Assembly (NCBI GenBank): GCA_965204345.1
Contig: OZ241981.1
Location: 64,001 to 128,000, forward strand
DNA from: Nitrosopumilus sp.
GTDB lineage: Archaea > Thermoproteota > Nitrososphaeria > Nitrososphaerales > Nitrosopumilaceae
Direction of reading: 5' to 3'
DNA length: 64,000 nucleotides
This document shows positions 3,425 to 17,486 of the stretch, one piece after another. The position numbers were made by a program, and so were the translations under genes. Every line of letters begins with the position of its first letter. The first letter of the stretch is position 1. The notes below the pieces were generated by a model that did no database searches, was not told the origin of the DNA, and worked only from the letters and a program-made list of their open reading frames with translations.

Positions 3425-4636
3425 ATGCCAATCAAGATTGGGCTAATTGGTAAAACAAATACCGGCAAAACCACCTTTTTTAATTCTGCCACCCTTTCAT
3501 CTGAGGAAATCTCATCCTATCCGTTTACCACAAAGTCTCCCGTCTCCGGAGTTGCACACGCCATTACGCTGTGCGTGCATCCTGAATTTAAAATTCAGGA
3601 CAATCCAAATAACTCAAAATGTCTTGATGGGTGGAGATACATTCCCATTGAGCTAATTGACCTGCCTGGCCTCATCAAGGATGCCTGGAAGGGAAAAGGC
3701 CTGGGAAACCAGTTTTTGTCCATTGCCGCCCAGTCTGACGTACTGCTCCATGTTGTTGATGCCTCCGGCGGAATTGACTCTACTGGCAAAATAACTGAGG
3801 TTGGCACAGGTGATCCTATATCTGACTTTGCAGACATTGAGGAAGAATTGATCATGTGGTATCATAAAATTTTGGAAGGAAACCGTGACAAAGTTTCCAA
3901 ATTAATTAATTCAGGCTCATCTGTTGTAGATGTCATCACTGATCTTTATCGTGGCATTGGAGTGACAAAGATACATGTCAAAGAATCCTTTCATGCAGCC
4001 GGCCTTGAGGAAAAGGCCTTTGATGACCTTGATATGGCTGAGAGTAAAAAATTTGCTTCATGCTTGAGAAAAATTTCAAAACCCACCCTTATTGTTGCAA
4101 ACAAGGTTGACGTTGACGGCGCTGAGAAAAATTTTGCAAGGTTAAGAGAACGATACAATGACTCCATAGTCATTCCTGTAAGTGGCGATAGTGAGTTTGT
4201 TCTTAGGCGTGCAGAACAAAAGGGCCTGATAAAATATTCTCCGGGCTCTGAGACATTTGAAATCTTAAAATCTGATGAGCTTAATGAAAAGCAAAACAGT
4301 GCCTTGAATTTCATCAAAAAAGAGATCATGGGCGAATACATGAGAACCGGAGTTCAATTTGCAATCAACGTGGCAGTTTTTAAGTTGCTCAAAATGAATT
4401 CCGTATATCCTGTTGCTGATGAAAAAAACCTTGCCGATAAAAAAGGCAAGATCTTGCCTGATCTTATTTTGCTAAAAGACGGCGCCACAATAAGTGATCT
4501 TGCCAAAGAGATCCACACTGATTTGACCAAGGGGCTTCTTTATGGCAAGGATTTAAGATATAATCTGAGATTGCCCATCGACTATCAGCTGAGGGACAGG
4601 GATGTGGTGTCTCTGGTCAGCGCAGCCAAAAAATAG
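3425..4636 (+). CDS. ychF: Obg-family YchF-like GTPase/ATPase with C-terminal TGS domain
   Basis: G1 GKTNTGKTT, G2 YPFTT, G3 DLPG, GLGNQFL, G4 NKVD, TGS-like C-terminus. Confidence 0.9.
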   Translation: MPIKIGLIGKTNTGKTTFFNSATLSSEEISSYPFTTKSPVSGVAHAITLCVHPEFKIQDNPNNSKCLDGWRYIPIELIDLPGLIKDAWKGKGLGNQFLSIAAQSDVLLHVVDASGGIDSTGKITEVGTGDPISDFADIEEELIMWYHKILEGNRDKVSKLINSGSSVVDVITDLYRGIGVTKIHVKESFHAAGLEEKAFDDLDMAESKKFASCLRKISKPTLIVANKVDVDGAEKNFARLRERYNDSIVIPVSGDSEFVLRRAEQKGLIKYSPGSETFEILKSDELNEKQNSALNFIKKEIMGEYMRTGVQFAINVAVFKLLKMNSVYPVADEKNLADKKGKILPDLILLKDGATISDLAKEIHTDLTKGLLYGKDLRYNLRLPIDYQLRDRDVVSLVSAAKK

Positions 4637-5965: not shown

Positions 5966-7123
5966 ATGATTTCAGACTCTGAAAATATTCGTAGAGCCAT
6001 CCTGTCTAGATGGCACGAATCTCTTTTAAGGCATGGCAATCTGTTCTCTTCTGATTTTGTGAGCGGTGCTAGTCCTCCGTCTGTATTTGTTGGATCATAC
6101 AACTACCCCAAAGTCCTCGTTGGTCCTATGGTGCCCCCAATTCATGGGGATACTAGTCTGTTAGATAGCCCTGAGCGATGGACAGGAAAGTCTTTAGAAG
6201 ACATTGTAAATTTTAGGCTCAATTTGGTCAGGGGCACACAAAAAATTCCAATAGGACAGACTGACGGGCGATACGTTGAAAATCTCCAAGAAGTTACAAT
6301 GTCTTCAAGGCCTATTGATTCTGATCTAGTTTTTCAGAGTTCTACTGCCCCTAGTGTTTCACTTGACGGTGAGAGTGCCCCTTTTGGTCCTATTGGCCAA
6401 ATAAAATCTGCAAAATTCTCTGCAAATGCTCCTGTAAAATCTATAGAAAAAACATACTATGACAAGGATCTAAAAGCTCAAGATGCTGTTTTAAATTTAT
6501 ATAATTCCGGAGTAGAAATTTCAAAAATCCAAAAATGCTTCAGTATTGGAATGCTCGGATGCAAAAGGAAGCTTGTTCCTACTAAATGGAGTATTACTGC
6601 AACTGATGATATTATTTGCAAATCGCTTACCGAGGACGTGTTAAACTACGGCCTGATTGACTCGCACAGGGTCTTTTCGTATGAGCATTTGGGGAATATC
6701 TTTTGCGTGGTATTGTTTCCACACCGATGGGTCTATGAAATGATTGAGGCCTGGTATTCTAACGGTGTCTTGGGTTTTGGCTCTGACTGTGAGGATGCCC
6801 GCGGAATTGATCATCCTCCCACTATTGCCGGTGCATATTTTGCTGCAAAACTAGGTGTTTTAGAATACCTTGTCAAAAATAAAGTTCAAGCAGGAGCTGT
6901 AATTTTACGAGAAATCCGTCCCGAGTATGCCATCCCTGTCGGTGTGTGGCAAGTGAGAGAGGGCGTCAGGGAGGCAATGAATAAAAAGCATCTCTTTGCC
7001 GATGATTTTGAGCACGCACTAACTTTGGCCTCAAATAAAACGAGCATCAGTAAATCTGAGTGGCTCATGCATGGAAATGTTGTCGAACTGACCAGACAGA
7101 AAGCTATTTCTGATTTTTTTTAA
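5966..7123 (+). CDS. nreA: Nre-family DNA repair protein
   Basis: SPPSVFVGSYNYPKV, LVPTKWSITATDD, GAYFAAKL, PVGVWQVRE, C-terminal PIP box QKAISDFF. Confidence 0.9.
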   Translation: MISDSENIRRAILSRWHESLLRHGNLFSSDFVSGASPPSVFVGSYNYPKVLVGPMVPPIHGDTSLLDSPERWTGKSLEDIVNFRLNLVRGTQKIPIGQTDGRYVENLQEVTMSSRPIDSDLVFQSSTAPSVSLDGESAPFGPIGQIKSAKFSANAPVKSIEKTYYDKDLKAQDAVLNLYNSGVEISKIQKCFSIGMLGCKRKLVPTKWSITATDDIICKSLTEDVLNYGLIDSHRVFSYEHLGNIFCVVLFPHRWVYEMIEAWYSNGVLGFGSDCEDARGIDHPPTIAGAYFAAKLGVLEYLVKNKVQAGAVILREIRPEYAIPVGVWQVREGVREAMNKKHLFADDFEHALTLASNKTSISKSEWLMHGNVVELTRQKAISDFF

Positions 7124-7836: not shown

Positions 7837-8097
7837 GTAAGAATATCTCCTAAAATAAGAAATATCATTACACGGTATGATTTAGAAAAGAGAATAAATA
7901 TTCAAAGATTAGCGTGAAAAATACCAAAATCTACGTATAAGCCTGAACAATTTCTATGTCTGATCTTTAGAATTTAGGATAGATTGATTGGATTATCTTT
8001 GCATCGGAGAAGGGTATATTATCGAGAAGAAAACCATCTCTGAATTAAATCAAAAATGTTTGAAGTTCAAAGATGGATAAAATATACACTTGTCTAA
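7837..8097 (+). pseudogene. Pseudogene of the TBP paralog (C-terminal repeat only)
   Basis: Manual translation VRISPKIRNIITRYDLEKRINIQRLA*KIPKSTYKPEQFLCLIFRI*D...IFAS..KG...KTISELNQ aligns with the C-terminal half of 14536..15075 (IKITPKVQNIVARFDLKQ...LPKSMYEPEQFPGLIYRIQD...LFASGKG...KTIAEVN). Two stops plus frameshifts. Confidence 0.8.
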
Positions 8098-8112: not shown

Positions 8113-9474
8113 TTGTTGGTGGAAATAATGGTGACACAGATAGAATTTGAGAAAGAAAATCTTCCAGAAGGATGGATTGTAACAGCAATTAGCAACATAA
8201 CAGAAACTGTACAAAAAATTAATCCTAAAGATACCCCCAATAAAATATTCCATTATTGTGACATAAATTCGATCGATAATAGTAGATTACAAATTACCAA
8301 TCCAAAACAAATTTTGGGTAAGAATGCACCATCTAGAGCAAGACAACTAATTAAGAAAAATGACATATTATTTTCCACTGTTCGAACATATTTGAAAAAT
8401 ATTGCGATGGTTCCAGAACATTTAAATGATAATTTGGCATCAACAGGATTTTGTGTTATACGAGCAGGAAAAATTAATGAAAAATTTATGTTTAATTATA
8501 TACAATCATCTCAGTTCATTGATCTAATAAACAGTGCACAAAGAGGAATAAGTTATCCAGCTGTAAGAAATAATGATGTACATAATAGCATTATTCCTCT
8601 CCCCCCACTCAACGAACAAAAACGCATCGTTACAAAAATCGAATCAATCTTCACACAGATTGATGCATGTAAAGAAGAATTAGATGTATTTGCATCGCAG
8701 ACCAAATCAGTTTCTTATAGTTTACAAACATTGAAGGGAAATATATTAAAACAAATGTTTGAAGAATTAAATAAAAAACACAGAGCAGATATGTTAGAGA
8801 AGGTGTGTATTGATATCCAATCGGGATTTGCTCAAGGGGAAAAAGATGTAAAAAATGGAATAATTCATCTTAGAATGAATAATATAGATACAAACTTCAC
8901 AATGAATTTTGAACTACTTCGGACTATCAATGCTACAAATAAACAAAAAGAAAAATATCTTTTACAAAAAAATGACATACTTTTTGTGAATACGAATAGT
9001 GTAGAATTAGTAGGCAAATCTGCTATTTTTACATTTGATAAAGACTGTCTTTATAGTAATCATTTAACACGTCTGCGCACTAATATTTCTATACTAGATC
9101 CAAAATTTCTCTTGTATTATTTTTATTATAAATGGATAAAACATGATTTTCGAAGTATATGTAATAAATGGATAAATCAAGTGGCAATTAATACTACAAA
9201 AATTAAACAACTACAAATTCCTCTTCCTCCCCTCAACGAACAAAAACGCATTGTTACAAAAATCGAATCAATCTTTGACAGGATTGATGTAAAACAAGAG
9301 GAAATGAAAAAGATTGAGATGCAGTTAAAATCAATTCCCGACAGCATTAATACATTGAAAGGCAGCATATTAAAAAAAGCATTTGAAGGTAAGTTGGTTC
9401 CACAGAATCCAAATGACGAACACGCATCTGTACTTCTTGAGAGGATAAAATCCCAAAAATCTAGGAAAATATAA
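8113..9474 (+). CDS. hsdS: Type I RM specificity subunit HsdS, copy 1 (TRD-A + TRD-B, complete C-terminus)
   Basis: LPEGW, two IPLPPLNEQKRIV conserved regions, C-terminal AFEGKLVPQNPNDEHASVLLERIK typical of the EcoAI/EcoEI (type IB) group. Probable start is ATG 8128. Confidence 0.95.
   Translation: MLVEIMVTQIEFEKENLPEGWIVTAISNITETVQKINPKDTPNKIFHYCDINSIDNSRLQITNPKQILGKNAPSRARQLIKKNDILFSTVRTYLKNIAMVPEHLNDNLASTGFCVIRAGKINEKFMFNYIQSSQFIDLINSAQRGISYPAVRNNDVHNSIIPLPPLNEQKRIVTKIESIFTQIDACKEELDVFASQTKSVSYSLQTLKGNILKQMFEELNKKHRADMLEKVCIDIQSGFAQGEKDVKNGIIHLRMNNIDTNFTMNFELLRTINATNKQKEKYLLQKNDILFVNTNSVELVGKSAIFTFDKDCLYSNHLTRLRTNISILDPKFLLYYFYYKWIKHDFRSICNKWINQVAINTTKIKQLQIPLPPLNEQKRIVTKIESIFDRIDVKQEEMKKIEMQLKSIPDSINTLKGSILKKAFEGKLVPQNPNDEHASVLLERIKSQKSRKI
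8146..8178 (+). repeat. hsdS repeat R1 (33 bp); inverted copies at 15618-15650 and 16305-16337
   Basis: TTTGAGAAAGAAAATCTTCCAGAAGGATGGATT; 31/33 identical to the reverse complement of 15618-15650. Confidence 0.9.
8593..8666 (+). repeat. hsdS inverted repeat R2, left copy (74 bp)
   Basis: 73/74 identical to the reverse complement of 15835-15908 (single C/T difference at 8610). Confidence 0.95.
9233..9293 (+). repeat. hsdS inverted repeat R3, left copy (61 bp)
   Basis: 55/61 identical to the reverse complement of 15160-15220. Confidence 0.9.
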
Positions 9475-9499
9475 ACACATGACATAAATTTACAAATAG

Positions 9500-10189
9500 T
9501 TGTTTATTCAAATTTCCAAGATAAAGAAAAAATATAATATCTTTACTAATAACATGCAAATGATTATGAGATCTAATTTACAAAATGATACTGGCCTAAA
9601 AATTCACAATAAAATAATTTTACAATTTTTTAAAGATTGTAAAGATAAAAAATTGTTATCCAATACAATAAAACCACAACAGAATAATACTATATGTACT
9701 CGTTGGGATATATCTAAGTTAACCGATCAAGCAATTCAAAAAATACGTAAACATAGGATTGATTTAAAAAACAATGAAAAAACACAATTTCTAAGTGATA
9801 AAGAACATGATGCCTTACAGTTTTCTCGCTGTGTGTCTTTTTTGAGAGACACTACCGAAGATTTGAAAATTTCATTACAGTTAATTATTGATCCATCACA
9901 AGTAAAATCATGTACTGAGCTTGGAAAATACCTTAACGAAATTTATAATAAACTAGGTTATAATGACGACAAGAAATCCAAAATGAATCGTGCCTTTCAA
10001 AAAGATCTCAGAAATGCATTAAGTCATAACAATTATTCGTATAAATGTGATAAAAACCATGTAAAGAGCATAACATGGCAAGATCATAATCAAAAACACA
10101 CATGGAATCAAGTGGAATTGTCCAAATCCATCTCAAAGATAATTTGCATAAATGGACTAATTGGCAAAATAATTAATGGGAAATTCTGA
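9500..10189 (+). CDS. Hypothetical protein with RxxxxH (HEPN-like) motif
   Basis: AT-rich 229-aa ORF directly downstream of hsdS copy 1, with DLRNALSHNNY in a helical context. The true start may be ATG 9554 or 9560. Confidence 0.55.
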   Translation: MFIQISKIKKKYNIFTNNMQMIMRSNLQNDTGLKIHNKIILQFFKDCKDKKLLSNTIKPQQNNTICTRWDISKLTDQAIQKIRKHRIDLKNNEKTQFLSDKEHDALQFSRCVSFLRDTTEDLKISLQLIIDPSQVKSCTELGKYLNEIYNKLGYNDDKKSKMNRAFQKDLRNALSHNNYSYKCDKNHVKSITWQDHNQKHTWNQVELSKSISKIICINGLIGKIINGKF

Positions 10190-10197
10190 TACCGTGC

Positions 10198-11697
10198 TTA
10201 TTTTGGGATTTCCTTGTTGATAATGTCTTTTATATCTTCAAATGACTTGATCATGCCCTTTCTTAGATCAATAAACTGATCAATTAATTTGTCTGGTGGC
10301 AGAACAATTGTTTCAATTACATCTGTTGGATTGTTGGAGTCAAGATTGAAATCCTGAATGTCTTTAACATTAATTTTCCATGCATTTTCATTTGATGTCT
10401 TCTTTTTGAACCATTTTTCAATCTCTGCAAAGTCGTCATATGCGATTGGGTTTGACTTTGTATATTTGGGATTCTTTGCACGAGTTACTCCACGCAATCG
10501 TTCGGCTACCTTCATTTGATAATACCAAATTTCTTTGGTTGGTCCTGTCTTGTCAAAAAACAGTATGTTTGTTGCAATTGATGTGTAAGGCTCAAAAACA
10601 GTTTTGGGCAGCCTAATTATCGTATGCAAGTTAAATTCTTCAAGAAGTTTTTTCTTGATTTTAGAGGCAACGCCTCCTGCAAACATTGGACCATCTGGAA
10701 GAATAATTCCACACCGTCCTCCTTCTTTTAGAGAATACATGATGTATAACAAGAATGAAAGAGCAGTATCTGATGTCTGCATTCCTACAGGTAGATTGGA
10801 TGAAATTCCTTCCTCCTCTTCCCCCCCAAATGGTGGATTCGTTATGATAAGATCATACTGGTCATTTTGAGAAATTTCTCTCAGAGGATTAACAAGTGTG
10901 TTTGCTCTGATAATGTTTGGTTTGTCTACCTCATGAAGAAGCATATTCATCATTCCTAAAAGATAAGGCATGGATTTTTTCTCGATCCCAAATAATGTGT
11001 TTGTAGTTAGTTTCTTCAAATCTCCTTTTGTTTTTTGTTCATGTCTTAGAAACTCCAAAGATTCTACCAAAAATCCACCTGTACCACATGCAGGATCTAA
11101 TATCTTTTCAGATTTTTTTAGACTAGGGTTGATTTGATTTACAATAAACCGAATTACAGGTCTTGGTGTGTAAAATTCTCCACTATTTCCTGCGGCATCT
11201 CTCATCTCAATTAACATATCTTCATAGAGTTTTGCCATGGTGTGAATGTCATCAGTATTGATAAAATTTACCTTATCTATCAGATTAATAATCTGTCTGA
11301 GGAGGTATCCACTGAGTATTCTATTGTTTAATTCTTTAAAGATCGTTGCAATGACATCTCTTTGTTCAAAACCTTTATCACCTGTCAGTTTTGAGAGTTT
11401 TGGAAATAATTTATTATTTACAAATGAGATTAGATCAGGACCTGTTAAAACCTTGACAGTACGTCCTTTCTTATCTTTTTCTGCTGCCCAATCCTGCCAT
11501 CGTAATCCCTTTGGTATTGCCTCCACATATTTTCTATTTAGAGCAGCCCTCTCTCTTTCAAAATCATCAAAACTCTTTAGGAATAAAATCCATGCAATTT
11601 GAGGAATTCTATCAACATCAGTATTAAGACCTGCATCTTTTCTCATTAGATCTCTTGCAGATTTTATTATAGAACGAAGTGAATGTGCATCCATCAT
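10198..11697 (-). CDS. hsdM: Type I RM methyltransferase subunit HsdM (N6-adenine)
   Basis: GEFYTPR, DPACGTGGF (motif I), NPPF (motif IV), N-terminal RDLMRKDAG. Confidence 0.97.
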   Translation of the reverse strand: MMDAHSLRSIIKSARDLMRKDAGLNTDVDRIPQIAWILFLKSFDDFERERAALNRKYVEAIPKGLRWQDWAAEKDKKGRTVKVLTGPDLISFVNNKLFPKLSKLTGDKGFEQRDVIATIFKELNNRILSGYLLRQIINLIDKVNFINTDDIHTMAKLYEDMLIEMRDAAGNSGEFYTPRPVIRFIVNQINPSLKKSEKILDPACGTGGFLVESLEFLRHEQKTKGDLKKLTTNTLFGIEKKSMPYLLGMMNMLLHEVDKPNIIRANTLVNPLREISQNDQYDLIITNPPFGGEEEEGISSNLPVGMQTSDTALSFLLYIMYSLKEGGRCGIILPDGPMFAGGVASKIKKKLLEEFNLHTIIRLPKTVFEPYTSIATNILFFDKTGPTKEIWYYQMKVAERLRGVTRAKNPKYTKSNPIAYDDFAEIEKWFKKKTSNENAWKINVKDIQDFNLDSNNPTDVIETIVLPPDKLIDQFIDLRKGMIKSFEDIKDIINKEIPK

Positions 11698-11728
11698 TAC
11701 TCATAATCGTATCGACATTAAATATGAT

Positions 11729-14095
11729 TCAGTTGTCTCTATACAATTCCTTTGTTAATTGTATTATTGCACCATCATATTCATCACCATCTTTGAATCT
11801 GTGATTGATGATTTCAGTAGGGCCTCCAAACTGTTTGAATTTTGGCAATTTCAAAACTCCTCTTTCCTCCAACTCTTGATACCCCTCCTCTGCATAATGA
11901 TCCAATATCACCTCTAGAACTTCTCGTGCTTTGTTCGGATATTTCTCCAAAAATGCCTTTTTATGTACAGAATTGATCCTCTCTAATCGAGTTTTTGCAT
12001 CTGCATTAAATGCAAAATGTAAGAGCATATCAAATGAATCAATCTTAGCCATCTGAGTGATTTCTTTAAGATGTGAAAAACTAACGCCTCTCTCTTCTAG
12101 TTGCTTTACAAAATGCTGTCTTTTTTCAGGATCTGTCCATATCTTGTATAGTTTTGTTTGTTCATCATTTACTAGACGGCGAACAGTCTCTCCAGTATAA
12201 TCTTGATAAGAAATAAGCCTATTCTGATTAATTGATTGATCAAAAATTAAAACCGATTCACCACGAATTTCTACTTTTTTTCCATTTATGTGATATGTTT
12301 TAATTGTTTGTGATTCTTGTTCTTCTTCTGCTTTATCTTCTAGTGCCTCTTTTACTGCATTTCTTCTTTTCTCTTCTGCACGTTCTAAGATTTTTTTTTC
12401 TTTTTCTTTAGTAATTATTTCTTGTTCTTCTTCAGTTTCTGCAATTGCAGGACCATCCCATTCTACATCCTCAAACAATCTACTAGTTTTTCTATAATCT
12501 ATAATTGAAAACCACATCTTATCTTTTGGTTCATAGACACGGGTACCTCTACCAATAATTTGTTTGAATTCAGTCATGGAATTAATGCTCTTATCTAATG
12601 CAATTATCTTGCATGTTGGAACATCTACGCCTGTTGACATTAATCTAGATGTAACTGCAACAATTGGAAAATCTTTGTTTGGTTCCTGGAATTGATCCAA
12701 GTATTCTCGTCCTATTTCACCTTCAGCAGAAACTATTCTGACACAATAGTCATGTCTTTCTCCAGAATAATTTCGAATTAGTTTAGTCATTGCTTGTGCA
12801 TGTTCTGAGTTTTGACAAAATAAAATCGTCTTGTTATATTTTTGATTATTTTTCTCCAAAAAATCTACAAGGTGTTTTGCTACGGTCTTTCGTCTCTCAT
12901 CAACAATTAAAATTCTGTCAAAATCTTTATAGCTGTATGTTTTGTCATCAAGTATCTTTCCATCTAAATCCGTTTCCCCTGGTTTTGGAATATATCCCGT
13001 CAGATCAATTTCAAGATTAACCCTGTGAATCATGTATGGTGCTAAAAAGCCATCTTCAATTCCTTGTTTTAGACTGTATGTGTATATAGGAATACCAAAA
13101 TAATCATACGTATCTTTATTTTCGTCCTTTCGTTTAGGAGTTGCAGTCATGCCTATGTGAACAGCATCTTTGAAATAATCCAATATCTTTCTCCAGCTCC
13201 CATCCTCATTGGAGCTTCCTCTGTGACATTCATCAATTATTATGTAATCAAAGAAATCTTTTGAATATTGCTTGTACAGCTCACAATCCTCTTTATCTAC
13301 ATCAAGTGCTTGATATAGTGCAAAATACATACTATATGCAGTCTGTGCAACTTTTTGGATCTTGTGTCTTGCTTCACCAAAACCTGCAAATGCATTATTT
13401 TTTGCTTGATCTAACAAAACGGTTCGATCTGCTAAAAATAAAATTTTTGGATGTGGGGTATCTTTTTTCCAGAGTTTTTGTGCAATTTGATAAGATATGA
13501 ATGTCTTGCCAGTTCCAGTCGCAAGATTTAAGAGTACGCGCTTCTTTCCTGCAAGAATTGCTGTTAATGTGGAATGGATTGCAATTTCTTGATAGTACCG
13601 AGGTTCCATGGGAGATCCTCCTGGATCTTTTGAACTTCGATCCAACGACTCTAATATAACATTCATTTGTTTTTTATTAAAATTTATACCTTCTTGGAAT
13701 CTCTCTAGTAATTCTTGAGGTGTTGGAAATTTATCTATTGTTTGTTGTTGTTTTTTGGAAAAGTCATATTCTTCAATTTTCTGTCCATTTGTTGCAAAAG
13801 CAAATTTTAACTCCATTTTTTCAGCATATTTTATTGCCTGACTCATTCCTTCATCATGTGGTTTGTCCCATGCTTTAGCTTCTATTACTGCAATTTTGTA
13901 ATCATCACCCAACTTGAGAATGTAATCAGCTATGATTGGTTGTGCCCTTTTTCCAGTACGGCCATCAGGAGTAATTCTGCCTTCATTAATTTTATATTCC
14001 CTAATGATTTTATCTAATTCCCAACCAGATTCTGCTAGCTTGGGATCAATATGTCTCATACAAGTGGTTGATTCGGACATCTTTTCTTCAGTCAA
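11729..14095 (-). CDS. hsdR: Type I RM restriction subunit HsdR (EcoAI/EcoEI-like)
   Basis: ADY...VIEAK nuclease motif, ATGTGKT, IIIDECHRG, GMTATP, TGVDVP, QIIGRGTR and an EcoEI_R_C-like C-terminus. Confidence 0.97.
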   Translation of the reverse strand: MTEEKMSESTTCMRHIDPKLAESGWELDKIIREYKINEGRITPDGRTGKRAQPIIADYILKLGDDYKIAVIEAKAWDKPHDEGMSQAIKYAEKMELKFAFATNGQKIEEYDFSKKQQQTIDKFPTPQELLERFQEGINFNKKQMNVILESLDRSSKDPGGSPMEPRYYQEIAIHSTLTAILAGKKRVLLNLATGTGKTFISYQIAQKLWKKDTPHPKILFLADRTVLLDQAKNNAFAGFGEARHKIQKVAQTAYSMYFALYQALDVDKEDCELYKQYSKDFFDYIIIDECHRGSSNEDGSWRKILDYFKDAVHIGMTATPKRKDENKDTYDYFGIPIYTYSLKQGIEDGFLAPYMIHRVNLEIDLTGYIPKPGETDLDGKILDDKTYSYKDFDRILIVDERRKTVAKHLVDFLEKNNQKYNKTILFCQNSEHAQAMTKLIRNYSGERHDYCVRIVSAEGEIGREYLDQFQEPNKDFPIVAVTSRLMSTGVDVPTCKIIALDKSINSMTEFKQIIGRGTRVYEPKDKMWFSIIDYRKTSRLFEDVEWDGPAIAETEEEQEIITKEKEKKILERAEEKRRNAVKEALEDKAEEEQESQTIKTYHINGKKVEIRGESVLIFDQSINQNRLISYQDYTGETVRRLVNDEQTKLYKIWTDPEKRQHFVKQLEERGVSFSHLKEITQMAKIDSFDMLLHFAFNADAKTRLERINSVHKKAFLEKYPNKAREVLEVILDHYAEEGYQELEERGVLKLPKFKQFGGPTEIINHRFKDGDEYDGAIIQLTKELYRDN

Positions 14096-14535
14096 TTTTC
14101 AACATAAAATTTTCAACATATTTCTAGATAAATGTTCTTTTTGAAAAATCAAATATTTTAGAATAAAATCAAGATTTGAATCTGCGAAATATTTTTGAGA
14201 ACTGATCTATTATACAGCTAACCATAGTGTGTTTATATCAGATCAAGAATAGGTGTGACTCTGAAAATATCTGGAATTTCTTGTATGGTGTAACAAGCAT
14301 TAGCTTGAACTCCTCTGTACAGACTGATTTTCACCTCCAATCATAACATTAACAAGTATTTACTTGTTGGACAGTAACGCAAAATATGCAAAATGAGAGA
14401 TGTTCATTAGATCTACAATTGTGGTACTTCGCACTATTGGATCTTTGGTTTTTATTTAGATTAGGACATATCTAGACAACTGATTACAAAATAGATTCAA
14501 TCTTAACAATTATTAGAAAAAATAAGAAAATTTCA

Positions 14536-15075
14536 CTAGATACATCTTACCTTGATATCAAATAATGCAGAATTTACTTCTGCAATGGTTTTTGCCCCTG
14601 CAATAACTCCTTTTCCTGATGCAAACAAAAGTGCTACACAGCTATCTTGAATTCTATATATCAAACCGGGAAATTGTTCTGGTTCATACATACTTTTTGG
14701 TAATATTCTTACAAGTTTTTCTATTGGCAAATTTTGTTTTAAATCGAATCGCGCTACAATATTTTGCACTTTGGGAGTAATTTTAATGAGTTTTGCAAGA
14801 TTATAATTATCCAGTATTTTTATTGCTTTTTTTAATTCTTTTTTAGATTGTGCAGGATTCTTTGTTCCAACTGAAATAAGTTTTCCATTTCCAAATACAG
14901 TAACTCGTCCAACCATCAAATCATCTTTTACATACCTACACCTGTATAAAGCAATATTTGAGCTGAGAAAGGGATATTTGTTAAAAGAAGCAATATCTAT
15001 TTTCTGTTTAAGATCTGCTGTAGTTACAGTGTTTTGAATTTTAATTCCTGCTACAAGCTTTGACTCTTTTTGCAT
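14536..15075 (-). CDS. Divergent TATA-box-binding protein paralog
   Basis: Two-repeat TBP architecture: IQNTVTTADL...VFGNGKLISVGTK and VQNIVARFDL...YEPEQFPGLIYRI...LLFASGKGVIAGAK. Repeat 1 lacks the YxPExFPG motif. Confidence 0.9.
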   Translation of the reverse strand: MQKESKLVAGIKIQNTVTTADLKQKIDIASFNKYPFLSSNIALYRCRYVKDDLMVGRVTVFGNGKLISVGTKNPAQSKKELKKAIKILDNYNLAKLIKITPKVQNIVARFDLKQNLPIEKLVRILPKSMYEPEQFPGLIYRIQDSCVALLFASGKGVIAGAKTIAEVNSALFDIKVRCI

Positions 15076-15086
15076 TAAAATTCATG

Positions 15087-16346
15087 TTACCCTATCGCAT
15101 TAAAAATGAATGTATTATTCACATATGTGATTTTTTGTTTGATTAAATATAATATCTGCTTTACATCAATCTTGTCAAAGATTGATTCAATTTTGGATAC
15201 GATGCGTTTTTGTTCGTTGAAAGGCGATAGTAAGACAGGAATAGTTTTCATTGCTGTCTGATTAAGTTTCAATCGTGTTGTCCCAGTTACATATCCATGA
15301 TAATTCACCTGATTCAAATAGTGGCAAAGAAATTTGTTGATCAATAATCCAGATATTCCTTTAAGAACATGAGCATGATTATTAACCCAACTTTTTCCAT
15401 TAACAATGTAGGCTTTGTTTTTGAAAGTTTCAAAAAATGGTGCACCGTCTTCTCCCAACAAAACCAATTCTTCATCAAAAATATAATCATCAATCAAGCC
15501 AACTTGACCAGTAGCACCATAATATGGAATATTTCCAGTACGATTTTTCCGTTCACTAGAATTTACTGGTATTCTTTTTCTGTCCCAAATTTCTACAATA
15601 TCTTCCAAATTGATCTTAATCCAACCTTCTGGAAGATTCTCTTTCTCAAAAATCAACTCTTTCTCAGAACTCTTATGCAATCTCCTCAAAAGCATCTCTG
15701 CTGGCTCATCAGCTGGATCCTGTGAAACCAGCTTGCCCTCAAAGGCCTGCTTGAGCACGCTACTTCTTAGCATCCCCAGGCTGCCAGAAGATGACTTTAT
15801 TTGAGATGCAAGTGCCTCCAGCTTGTTTTGTGCCGCATCAATCTGTGTGAAGATTGATTCGATTTTTGTAACGATGCGTTTTTGTTCGTTAAGTGGGGGG
15901 AGAGGAATTGAATATATTGCCAGCTTTTCATATTTTATTCGAGGGTGTTGAACTCCTGTCATATTTCTATTAGCAAAACGTACAACCTGACTGGTAGATA
16001 AAAATAACATAATGTATTTGCTAACCAGATTGTCATTTTGTTGGAAAACCAATATGTCTGTGGAACACACTCCGTTAAAATCTGGAATTGCTACTTTGTT
16101 TAGATATGGACGTAATTTTCCATAAAGAATATCTCCCTTACTAAAGACATTTTTTGTGCTCTTTGTATCTTTTGAATTGGCCTTTCCAATAATTTTTCTT
16201 GAATTACTTTCTATGTGTTCTAATCCCACAAAAGGTTGATTTTTCTCATTCTTTGGATCAAATTTTCTTTTTGATTGATTCAGAACATTCAGTAAATCTG
16301 TTCTAATCCACCCTTCTGGAAGATGCTCTTTCTCAAAAATCAACAT
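15087..16346 (-). CDS. hsdS: Type I RM specificity subunit HsdS, copy 2 (TRD-C + TRD-D, C-terminal conserved region missing)
   Basis: LPEGW twice, IPLPPLNEQKRIV, central AFEGKLVSQDPADEPA. After IDVKQ the sequence becomes unrelated (ILYLIKQKITYVNNTFIFNAIG*). Confidence 0.9.
   Translation of the reverse strand: MLIFEKEHLPEGWIRTDLLNVLNQSKRKFDPKNEKNQPFVGLEHIESNSRKIIGKANSKDTKSTKNVFSKGDILYGKLRPYLNKVAIPDFNGVCSTDILVFQQNDNLVSKYIMLFLSTSQVVRFANRNMTGVQHPRIKYEKLAIYSIPLPPLNEQKRIVTKIESIFTQIDAAQNKLEALASQIKSSSGSLGMLRSSVLKQAFEGKLVSQDPADEPAEMLLRRLHKSSEKELIFEKENLPEGWIKINLEDIVEIWDRKRIPVNSSERKNRTGNIPYYGATGQVGLIDDYIFDEELVLLGEDGAPFFETFKNKAYIVNGKSWVNNHAHVLKGISGLLINKFLCHYLNQVNYHGYVTGTTRLKLNQTAMKTIPVLLSPFNEQKRIVSKIESIFDKIDVKQILYLIKQKITYVNNTFIFNAIG
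15160..15220 (-). repeat. hsdS inverted repeat R3, right copy
   Basis: Reverse complement matches 9233-9293 at 55/61; similarity ends where hsdS copy 2 loses homology. Confidence 0.9.
15618..15657 (-). repeat. hsdS repeat R1, internal copy (40-bp direct repeat with 16305-16344)
   Basis: 38/40 identical to 16305-16344; encodes LIFEKENLPEGWI. Confidence 0.9.
15835..15908 (-). repeat. hsdS inverted repeat R2, right copy
   Basis: 73/74 match to 8593-8666. Confidence 0.95.
16305..16344 (-). repeat. hsdS repeat R1, 5' copy
   Basis: Encodes LIFEKEHLPEGWI at the start of hsdS copy 2. Confidence 0.9.
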
Positions 16347-16559: not shown

Positions 16560-17486
16560 TTAGATCTCTATTTTATACATGACTTTTTTGAATTCCCTAA
16601 AGAGATCTTCTAGGGTAGGCGTCAGATATACATGATCAAGACCATTTTTGTGACCCATTAGCTTTTCTGCAATGTTATAGTTTACTGAATTGTCCAGTTT
16701 TAAGACAGTATTGTATCGCTTTCTAAAACCATGATCTGCTTGGACGTCAAAACGATTTTTTGATTTTATTCTTTTCAGGTTACTTTTCTGAATTATTCTA
16801 TAAATTGCAGAACGAACGCCGTTCCAACCTAATTGTTTTGGAAGGAATTTGGTTGTTGCAAATATGGGAGTATCTTTGTAAAATATTTCTCCTTGATTTT
16901 TACGATATTCATGATAAGCTTTCAATGCCTTGGTTGCTTGTGGTGTAAGAAATGCCCAATACTCCTCAACATGTCCCGCATAAAGCAATATGCCAGTGCA
17001 ACCATATGACATCTTCATCATGTGTTTTATGGATAAATCGTGATCAAAAACTCCCACCCTTGCTCCTGTTGAACTAAAAAAGTACACCAAAGCTTTGTTC
17101 CTAAGGCTTGTTGTGTTGGATAATAATTTCTTGATTTCTTTTGTCGTATATGCCCTCAAGCTTTGCGTTTTTTGCTTTTGTGGGAACATTTTGTTTATGA
17201 TGTTCCAGTTAAGATTAATCTCATTCATTATACAGAAATGCTTTATGCCCTGAAACTTTGATGGGATAGAATTGGGGTTTGTAGTACGCTTTAGCTCGAT
17301 TAAATAATTCTCAAGATTATACTGCAAGTCTGTATTTGGAATACTTGTTAGTTGATTTTGGGATGTAATGTTTGCAAAATTTAAAAAAGAGTTAAGATGT
17401 GATGTATAATTCTTTTTTGTGTATTTTGATTTTATCGACTCTTCAAATAATAATGAACATCGATGTTTAGTTATTAAATTACTCAT
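16560..17486 (-). CDS. Tyrosine recombinase/integrase (Xer-like), intact
   Basis: Catalytic residues present: STGARVG (R), HGFRKR (HxxR), LMGH (H) and HVY (Y). Confidence 0.93.
   Translation of the reverse strand: MSNLITKHRCSLLFEESIKSKYTKKNYTSHLNSFLNFANITSQNQLTSIPNTDLQYNLENYLIELKRTTNPNSIPSKFQGIKHFCIMNEINLNWNIINKMFPQKQKTQSLRAYTTKEIKKLLSNTTSLRNKALVYFFSSTGARVGVFDHDLSIKHMMKMSYGCTGILLYAGHVEEYWAFLTPQATKALKAYHEYRKNQGEIFYKDTPIFATTKFLPKQLGWNGVRSAIYRIIQKSNLKRIKSKNRFDVQADHGFRKRYNTVLKLDNSVNYNIAEKLMGHKNGLDHVYLTPTLEDLFREFKKVMYKIEI

Follow-up and report, generated by a model that had tools for sequence, protein, structure and literature searches.

Type I restriction-modification (R-M) systems that invert DNA within their specificity genes (hsdS) are epigenetic switches known mostly from host-associated bacteria. 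Bacterial systems of this kind that encode a tyrosine recombinase in the locus have been well described (PMC7394358, PMC7672463). In the passages considered here, Atack et al. (2020) set out a four-phase bacterial scheme in which repeats lie before the 5' target recognition domain (TRD) and between the two TRDs (PMC7394358), and Huang et al. (2020) describe clade-2 loci whose inversions would truncate HsdS (PMC7672463). Here, we consider a locus from the archaeon Nitrosopumilus sp., in which two opposed hsdS genes, together with an adjoining recombinase gene, probably form an hsdS inverton. The DNA analysed is a 64-kb window of contig OZ241981.1 (assembly GCA_965204345.1), referred to as the window throughout, and coordinates are positions within it.

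Among the bacterial systems, Efa4125I/EfaH25I of Enterococcus faecalis, with EfiA, resembles this locus in having two full-length hsdS genes, a tyrosine invertase in the locus and a mid-gene inverted repeat through which the second TRDs are swapped, as far as the passages on it go (PMC7672463). SpnD39III (cod/ivr) of Streptococcus pneumoniae is described as switching its specificity by inversions between hsdS repeats, again with a tyrosine recombinase in the locus (PMC4190663, PMC7096588). For archaea, Type I loci with multiple hsdS genes and an invertase homologue have been counted in Euryarchaeota (4 and 11 loci in Tables 1 and 2 of PMC7672463), and the main text of that source includes no Thaumarchaeota or Crenarchaeota among its listed loci; its supplementary tables may hold more. 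The word 'archaea' has 0 mentions in the passages of PMC7394358, whose supplementary tables may likewise list more, and Milman et al. (2023) name archaea as future work in the part seen of that paper (PMC9881135). Among the titles and abstract openings that literature searches returned, none names an hsdS inverton in Thaumarchaeota/Nitrososphaerota, with the same provision that supplementary tables may list more.

A sequence-only reading of this DNA had drawn attention to an exact 17-nt word (the 17-mer) at the downstream edge of all four TRDs and had proposed that it is constrained as DNA, as a recombinase binding or crossover site might be. We instead favour, at a probability of about 60%, a reading in which a palindrome lying downstream of the 17-mer would be the site of the recombinase, the 17-mer would be a passenger, and the whole would constitute an invertible Type I R-M locus with two hsdS genes.

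Two opposed hsdS genes and the repeats within them

The locus is made up of convergent, full-length hsdS1 (8113..9474, + strand; Pfam PF01420, 5.8e-23; an ATG at 8128 may be the start) and hsdS2 (15087..16346, - strand; PF01420, 6e-33), each with two TRDs. These are placed around hsdM (10198..11697, -; PF02384, 5.3e-63), hsdR (11729..14095, -; PF04851 and PF08463), both within the segment that would invert, and a divergent paralog of TBP (14536..15075, -; PF00352, 1.9e-31), with the gene for a 308-aa tyrosine recombinase (16560..17486, -) adjoining. At least two opposed hsdS genes thus stand in one locus with hsdM and hsdR, inverted repeats lie within the hsdS genes (I1, 123 nt; I3, 64 nt; I5, 40 nt) and a site-specific recombinase gene sits beside them, all of which would be looked for in an inverting system.

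The 17-mer lies in the central (8611..8627, +) and distal (9235..9251, +) conserved regions of hsdS1 and in the distal (15202..15218, -) and central (15874..15890, -) conserved regions of hsdS2, with an exact match in each case. The sequence-only reading had placed the four copies in just this way, two forward and two reversed, and had noted that the neighbouring codons differ (PLPPL vs LLSPF; VTK vs VSK), and both observations hold. Directly after each of the four TRDs the 17-mer codes for N-E-Q-K-R-I, with only the first two bases of the Ile codon included, and it lies at the beginning of the conserved helix (PPL-NEQKRIV...) found after each HsdS TRD. Beyond the four copies there is no further match in the window at two or fewer mismatches, and 0 of 100 dinucleotide shuffles gave one. 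Codon bias is not the source of this identity, because CGC makes up only 8% of Arg codons in the 835 long open reading frames (ORFs) of the genome, in which AAC makes up 42% of Asn codons. From these genome codon frequencies the chance that four independent draws would agree on five full codons is, by arithmetic, p ~3e-5, a figure whose null assumes independence and which is the wrong null for copies that are paralogous repeats. The four-fold identity, CGC included, would be explained by protein constraint combined with concerted evolution of the repeats.

Those repeats measure 57-123 nt, and the 17-mer is the longest run within them that is invariant in all four copies. The inverted arms formed by the two central regions extend over 123 nt at 82% identity, 56 nt of which are exact, and those formed by the two distal regions over 64 nt at 89% identity; the central and distal regions of a single hsdS gene repeat each other directly over 55-87 nt. 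A further repeat encodes the N-terminal FEKENLPEGWI of hsdS1 (8146..8185, +) and is inverted with respect to 16298-16337 and 15618-15650 (I5 and I6), and a linker copy of it in hsdS2 (15617..15657, -) is a 41-nt direct repeat of 16304-16344 (D4). The assembly has another haplotype of the locus (contig C3 = L011), in which two of the four 17-mer copies have AAA for AAC, so that 14 nt are invariant over the eight copies of the assembly.

The 17-mer and the candidate core across related loci

A 28-nt imperfect palindrome starts 13 nt downstream of the end of the 17-mer and comprises an 11-nt arm, a 6-nt spacer and a second 11-nt arm, falling within the codons for I-E-S-I-F-x-x-I-D-A. The arms are the 11-nt CGAATCAATCT and its near reverse complement, and the spacer is asymmetric. 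In hsdS1 this candidate core occupies 8640..8667 (+) at the central site, with the spacer TCACAC at 8651-8656, and 9264..9291 (+) at the distal site, with the spacer TTGACA at 9275-9280. In hsdS2 it occupies 15162..15189 (-) at the distal site, with the same spacer as at 9275-9280, and 15834..15861 (-) at the central site, where the arms are complementary at 10/11 positions. Inverted arms around a short asymmetric spacer are also the layout of dif and loxP, and here the spacer is shared by partners and the arms are 7-11/11 complementary. The recombinase is predicted to bind the arms and to cut at the spacer edges.

Repeat-like DNA was found in 9/36 congeneric genomes and in 0/24 genomes of other families of the order. 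An nhmmer profile collected 53 repeat copies, of which 50 from 16 loci were counted; the three dropped were L045, which shares its contig with L037, L051, which scores 20 bits and has an in-frame stop, and one copy out of register. Across the counted copies every codon of the 17-mer varies synonymously: N is AAC 26 times and AAT 4, E is GAA 42 and GAG 6, Q is CAA 46 and CAG 4, K is AAA 34 and AAG 4, R is CGC 25, AGA 13, CGT 3, CGA 3 and AGG 1, and I is ATC 40, ATT 7 and ATA 2. Other fully conserved residues also vary in codon (K 35/15, D 41/9). E-S-I is written GAA-TCA-ATC in 50/50 copies and a later Ile is ATT in 50/50, and the bases that are invariant across copies are the inner parts of the two inverted palindrome arms. 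Given that a nucleotide profile such as that used by nhmmer could favour copies of this sort, the test was repeated in a codon-blind form, with the pattern K-I-E-S-I-[FL]-x-x-I-D, over 401 genomes of the family. This gave 45 matches in 15 genomes (2 in the reversed control), and within the window's genus 42/42 read GAATCAATC. Two forward and two reverse copies of the pattern are present in eight genomes, including G000 (4+4 with the second haplotype) and G397 (2+3), and besides those in the eight repeat copies the whole genome has one further TCAATC-N8-GATTGA site (G000:C1:463328-463347). The codon-blind pattern was also matched by six stretches of metagenome contigs, about three of them hsdS-like, and 0/6 use GAATCAATC; a metagenome scan with the hsdS1 protein returned 100 pattern matches with no relative among them.

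The comparison of inverted partners, made over 21 pairs from 11 loci, also separates the two elements. Partner spacers are identical in 21/21 pairs, though the loci have between them four central and five distal variants, and they co-vary between partners while the flanks diverge. The central and distal spacers of one locus, in contrast, differ at 3-5/6 positions in 11/11 loci, and at 5/6 in the window. The 28-nt core is identical in 13/21 partner pairs (0.020 mismatches per nt), compared with 8/21 for the 17-mer (0.165 mismatches per nt), which differs in the other 13 by up to 9/17 bases. At L050 the central partners read NEQHHIVSK and NEQKRIVAK through the 17-mer region and are identical from the core onward, and the L048 distal pair retains ~22 nt of exact identity, as counted from the printed cores and match strings. 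Recombinases of the same clade also accompany a second hsdS family (EQQKIASILSGVDA; L040, whose recombinase is 78% identical, L053, L054, L057 and L064); this family has inverted repeats of 42-50 nt with a common TCAATC...TTGATGC and class-specific spacers, and its EQ box is 12 nt closer to the palindrome.

Solitary hsdS genes bear on the same point. In another genus, two genomes have a classical hsdR-hsdS-hsdM operon whose hsdS encodes the same peptide, and no ORF of at least 90 aa within 20 kb of those operons matches either recombinase of this genome (blastp, E 1e-5). The sequence-only reading had expected that solitary genes would not use the codons of the 17-mer, and here it fails: in solitary L141 the bases of the 17-mer region match at 16/17 and 15/17 positions, and in L140 at 11/17, both with no recombinase hit in 20 kb. 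It is in the arm that L141 departs, reading GAA-TCC-ATA or GAA-TCT-ATA and, for Ile-Asp, ATC-GAC or GTT-GAT, and the arm of L140 reads GAG-TCA-ATC.

These data make it very unlikely, in our view, that the 17-mer itself is the binding or crossover site of the recombinase, or an accessory binding arm beside the core. That alternative can draw on the exact match of all four window copies with a rare Arg codon inside inverted repeats, and on the 14-nt part that is invariant in all eight copies of the assembly. It has to contend with the synonymous variation of every codon, the divergence of 13/21 partner pairs, the L050 partners, the 15-16/17 bases retained by solitary genes, the shifted EQ box of the second family and an exchange, discussed below, that lies 14-29 nt downstream of the 17-mer. 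Of the earlier proposal, what survives is that the post-TRD regions are under DNA-level constraint and recombine; the 17-mer as the element concerned does not, and it probably rides along as a passenger rather than serving as a recombinase site. The longest exact shared word in coding repeats need not be a functional DNA element, and the relatives placed the constraint elsewhere.

Several observations nevertheless weigh against the palindrome as the site. Arms complementary at 10/11 or more positions occur at 1 site in the 64-kb window, when 1.2 would be expected in random sequence, and we dropped symmetry as proof of the palindrome's significance; the distal cores are symmetric at just 7-10/11 arm positions. 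The weight that we give to the palindrome derives from the cross-locus pattern and not from its symmetry. A solitary hsdS of the window's own genus (L142) retains the palindrome. The rare CGC is still the commonest Arg codon in the 17-mer (25/45), and some DNA-level preference may act within that word too. The copies are related, gene conversion could also keep partners alike, and the counts overstate independence. Finally, the mosaic boundaries (49 copies, 12 informative pairs) are placed between -40 and +28 of the core start with no clear clustering: just 3-4/12 are inside the core or on its edge, and 6/12 end at -28 to -37, the TRD edge, which is at or within ~7 nt of the left end of the 17-mer and is a point in that word's favour.

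Tails, recombinase and observed rearrangements

The distal site acquires a likely meaning from what follows it. Among family-A loci that have two hsdS genes, 11/11 possess a single gene that runs on after the distal core into a canonical tail of 56-67 aa with the pattern ..LK.S.LK.AFEGKLVPQDPNDEPA.., and the other gene has an unrelated tail of 16-47 aa that diverges right after the distal core. Family-B loci, those of the second hsdS family, have one canonical tail per locus in 3/3 cases. Identity between distal partners ends 28 nt after the core start in 7/11 pairs, as counted from match strings. In the window the long tail (canonical, 61 aa) is on hsdS1, and hsdS2 has a short, non-canonical tail of 25 aa that starts right after the distal core, with the TBP paralog 11 nt after the gene. 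The short-tailed HsdS is presumably inactive.

From this arrangement we infer a mechanism, each step of which is drawn from sequence. The adjacent recombinase, with its Xer/Cre-type fold, would pair only sites with identical spacers (the two central sites with each other, and likewise the two distal ones), the palindrome being its putative site, and would catalyse both inversions. A central inversion would swap TRD2 between the hsdS genes, and a distal inversion would swap their 3' ends, handing the sole complete 3' end to the other gene. In combination the two could yield four alternative complete HsdS proteins, with one canonical C-terminal helix end per locus. The sequence-only reading had expected pairing of the second and third repeats (R2 with R3) to give HsdS variants with one or three TRDs; these repeats are the two distal ones, and their exchange keeps two TRDs in both genes and swaps the 3' tails; it is this junction that run X2, below, contains. 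Products with one or three TRDs need central-by-distal pairing, which the differing spacers (5/6) should disfavour.

The AlphaFold model of the recombinase, built with an alignment of 33 homologues, has a pLDDT of 86.5, and the top Foldseek matches are XerA 5hxy (E 2e-9), Cre, XerH, the integron integrase IntI and lambda Int, at a probability of 1.00; judged from the model, the protein has the two-domain Xer/Cre/Int fold. R143, H252, R255, H279 and Y287, which we take to be the catalytic residues from the order of motifs, are invariant in 33/33 homologues. The best NCBIfam match is archaeal XerA (NF040815, E 2e-14). Other results for this protein count against our reading: the score against Pfam PF00589 is 25.2 bits, below the cut-off of 27.1; that against the XerA equivalog is 53.8 bits (52.7 in the genome search) for a cut-off of 220; and the catalytic Lys has no assignment. 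None of the proteins encoded in this genome scores as high as the XerA cut-off, and the alignment profile gave 0 matches to PDB sequences at E 0.001. The recombinase is found in several copies per genome and in some genomes only. Scanning one genome per species with the alignment gave 71 loci in Nitrosopumilus, Nitrosopumilaceae or Cenarchaeum metagenome-assembled genomes, and an hsdS gene was found within 10 kb (blastp) at 18/33 loci whose recombinase is at least 59% identical, compared with 0/38 at 54% or less; of the 15 hsdS-negative loci in the upper group, several are short contigs.

Sequencing runs were examined as assembled contigs, from which rare variants are dropped. Two of the runs that hold window sequence carry a sponge metagenome label. 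One of them, X2, holds 0.65 of the words. A contig of this run, at depth 21.5, connects 9280 with 15172 on the opposite strand and keeps the distal repeats exactly in register, with 255 nt or more to either side of the joint. This contig shows a distal-by-distal inversion as a difference between samples. Sixteen letters at the joint are ambiguous, and we equate them with 9265-9280, the left arm and spacer of the core, no other 16-nt stretch being identical between the two distal copies. On that basis this exchange, the single one that could be mapped, would lie within the core, 14-29 nt beyond the 17-mer; the sequence-only reading had expected crossovers to fall in the 17-mer itself. A loose end at 9259 in X2 looks like the reciprocal junction, although its S2-like part is a diverged allele and the exchange point is uninformative. 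Contigs of run X1 end at 9280 and start at 9265, as would be expected if both junction forms were present in that sample, which as a matter of contig ends only is weak evidence. Another X1 contig (depth 8.3, with 40 nt on its shorter side) links 8593, on one strand, to 15616 on the other; this contig, perhaps a TRD1a-TRD2b hybrid, is out of register with the central repeats. Contigs break at both central repeats (8637/8638 and 15861-15864), presumably because the 56-nt exact inverted repeat exceeds the word length of the assembler.

Runs X1 and X2 also carry, at main depth, a 687-nt in-frame deletion (15638->16326) that leaves hsdS2 with a single TRD. The one-TRD variant anticipated by the sequence-only reading does exist, therefore, but through a different route, since the deletion lies between the 41-nt N-terminal and linker direct repeats (15617-15657 and 16304-16344), which have no palindrome. 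It is this single-TRD form that would gain the complete tail in X2. Such a deletion is one of the points that could be raised for a rival account, in which the 57-123 nt repeats exchange by general homologous recombination or by gene conversion and the neighbouring recombinase is uninvolved, for example as a relic integrase. The repeats of the window are long enough for homologous exchange, the mosaic boundaries are scattered, and pneumococcal spnIII recombination has been reported, in the passage considered, to be independent of known site-specific recombinases (PMC6620402). We regard this alternative as unlikely. The link between the recombinase clade and inverted hsdS pairs is specific (18/33 vs 0/38), an integration site is not evident and no tRNA that might serve as integration target occurs in window positions 1-26000, synonymous invariance is limited to the palindrome arms, and spacers are identical in 21/21 partners while flanks diverge, down to the ~22 nt of exact identity of the L048 distal pair.

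The runs also raise the question of whether the locus still switches. In the probable source runs, X5 and X7, the window form stands at ~86-106x beside the C3 haplotype at ~12-38x, and their contigs contain no alternative junction of the window's own sequences, one X5 contig spanning 8637-14722; these results speak against active inversion. The X5/X7 joints 8178<->9219, 9216<->16307, 14535<->15693 and 15220<->15617 were considered as signs of switching and rejected, being the C3 haplotype laid on the window. The differences that are seen lie between samples or haplotypes, and one could suppose that the locus is the frozen product of a past duplication or rearrangement, with repeats that persist through protein constraint alone and no present switching. 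This seems improbable to us, given the two-class site design and the single canonical tail kept in 11/11 plus 3/3 loci of different species, the co-variation of partner spacers and the X1 contig ends. Under our preferred reading, with the palindrome as recombinase site, switching within populations would be ongoing.

The C3 (L011) contig is 10.6 kb long and represents a minority haplotype of the same locus, with flanks in common (99.5% on the Nre side). Its TRDs differ from those of the window, its hsdM and hsdR differ to the point of being undetectable by blastn against the window's, and a TBP-hsdR block follows the Nre-side hsdS. One identical TRD2 is present in both of its hsdS genes, and the identity ends 28 nt after the distal core start. 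A second Type I locus of the assembly, L012 (G000:C1:226001-242000), has a 448-aa tyrosine recombinase between hsdR and hsdM and four half-size hsdS ORFs in two inverted pairs, with a 62-nt perfect inverted repeat (4160-4221 / 11588-11649); neither the 17-mer nor the palindrome is present at L012. A divergent TBP paralog adjoins hsdS in all three Type I loci of the assembly (window 14536-15075, -; L011 6337-6888, -; L012 2657-3214, +), scoring 76 + 34 bits for its repeats compared with 94-100 bits per repeat for the three canonical TBP genes elsewhere, and in relatives the paralog is often directly upstream of the recombinase (L048, L051, L060, L062, L065, L090). PADLOC returned nothing for the TBP paralog or the recombinase. 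Elsewhere in the window, Nre is encoded at 5966-7123 (+), the stretch immediately before hsdS1 (7849-7986, +) is a TBP fragment with two stops, and downstream of the long-tailed hsdS1 a 229-aa ORF (9500..10189, +) yields no family assignment, with no match above cut-off in Pfam and none in NCBIfam or PADLOC.

Comparison with known switching systems

Extending the argument beyond the window is a more tentative step. It may be that Nitrosopumilus, including sponge-associated members, harbours an inverton family with a dedicated Xer-like recombinase clade, a 28-bp core in the codons of the HsdS coiled coil, two site classes distinguished solely by the 6-nt overlap, and a four-state switch, in which central inversion shuffles TRD2 and distal inversion moves the single functional tail; the TBP paralog may be a transcription factor dedicated to the switch. 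If our reading is true, the same switching strategy would operate in ammonia-oxidising archaea with their own recombinase clade and a compact, predictable core site. It would provide a 28-nt target for biochemistry, an overlap-identity rule that predicts which rearrangements are allowed, and a route to methylome heterogeneity in uncultured archaeal symbionts.

In Mycoplasma pulmonis, two inverted hsdS genes flank hsdM and hsdR. The hsd1/hsd2 loci of that organism, which act with HvsR, are also like the present one in having short dedicated sites (vip/hrs) in hsdS and many allele combinations, and unlike it in that HvsR is encoded elsewhere in the genome, according to the passages considered (PMC5149525, PMC7672463). 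The SpnD39III system differs in its use of one expressed hsdS with silent partial copies and of three repeat pairs that give six specificities, as described in the passages on it. Its recombinase PsrA is reported there to footprint a short repeat, IR1, and its boundary, and a palindromic core with class-specific spacers is not described in those passages (PMC7096588, PMC4190663). The E. faecalis system, in the part of the source that describes it, relies on a 60-bp IR1 and a 15-bp IR2 of unrelated sequence (PMC7672463). Compared with the enterococcal arrangement, the archaeal locus adds a second class of site after the 3' TRD, through which the C-terminal tails would be swapped, and its segment holds hsdM, hsdR and the TBP paralog.

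With XerA, Cre/loxP and XerH/difH, the likeness is one of the protein: these supply the best fold matches (Foldseek) and, in XerA, the best NCBIfam match of the window recombinase. The distance from XerA is nevertheless large, with 53.8 bits scored where 220 are called for, several copies per genome and in some genomes only, and candidate sites that lie inside coding sequence. If true, the archaeal logic would also swap the 3' tail of a gene, unlike the four-phase bacterial scheme as given in the passages of PMC7394358. Taken together, the kind of system is known; what is different here is the lineage, the recombinase clade (perhaps distinct from the six found in bacteria), the candidate core and the logic of the 3' tail.

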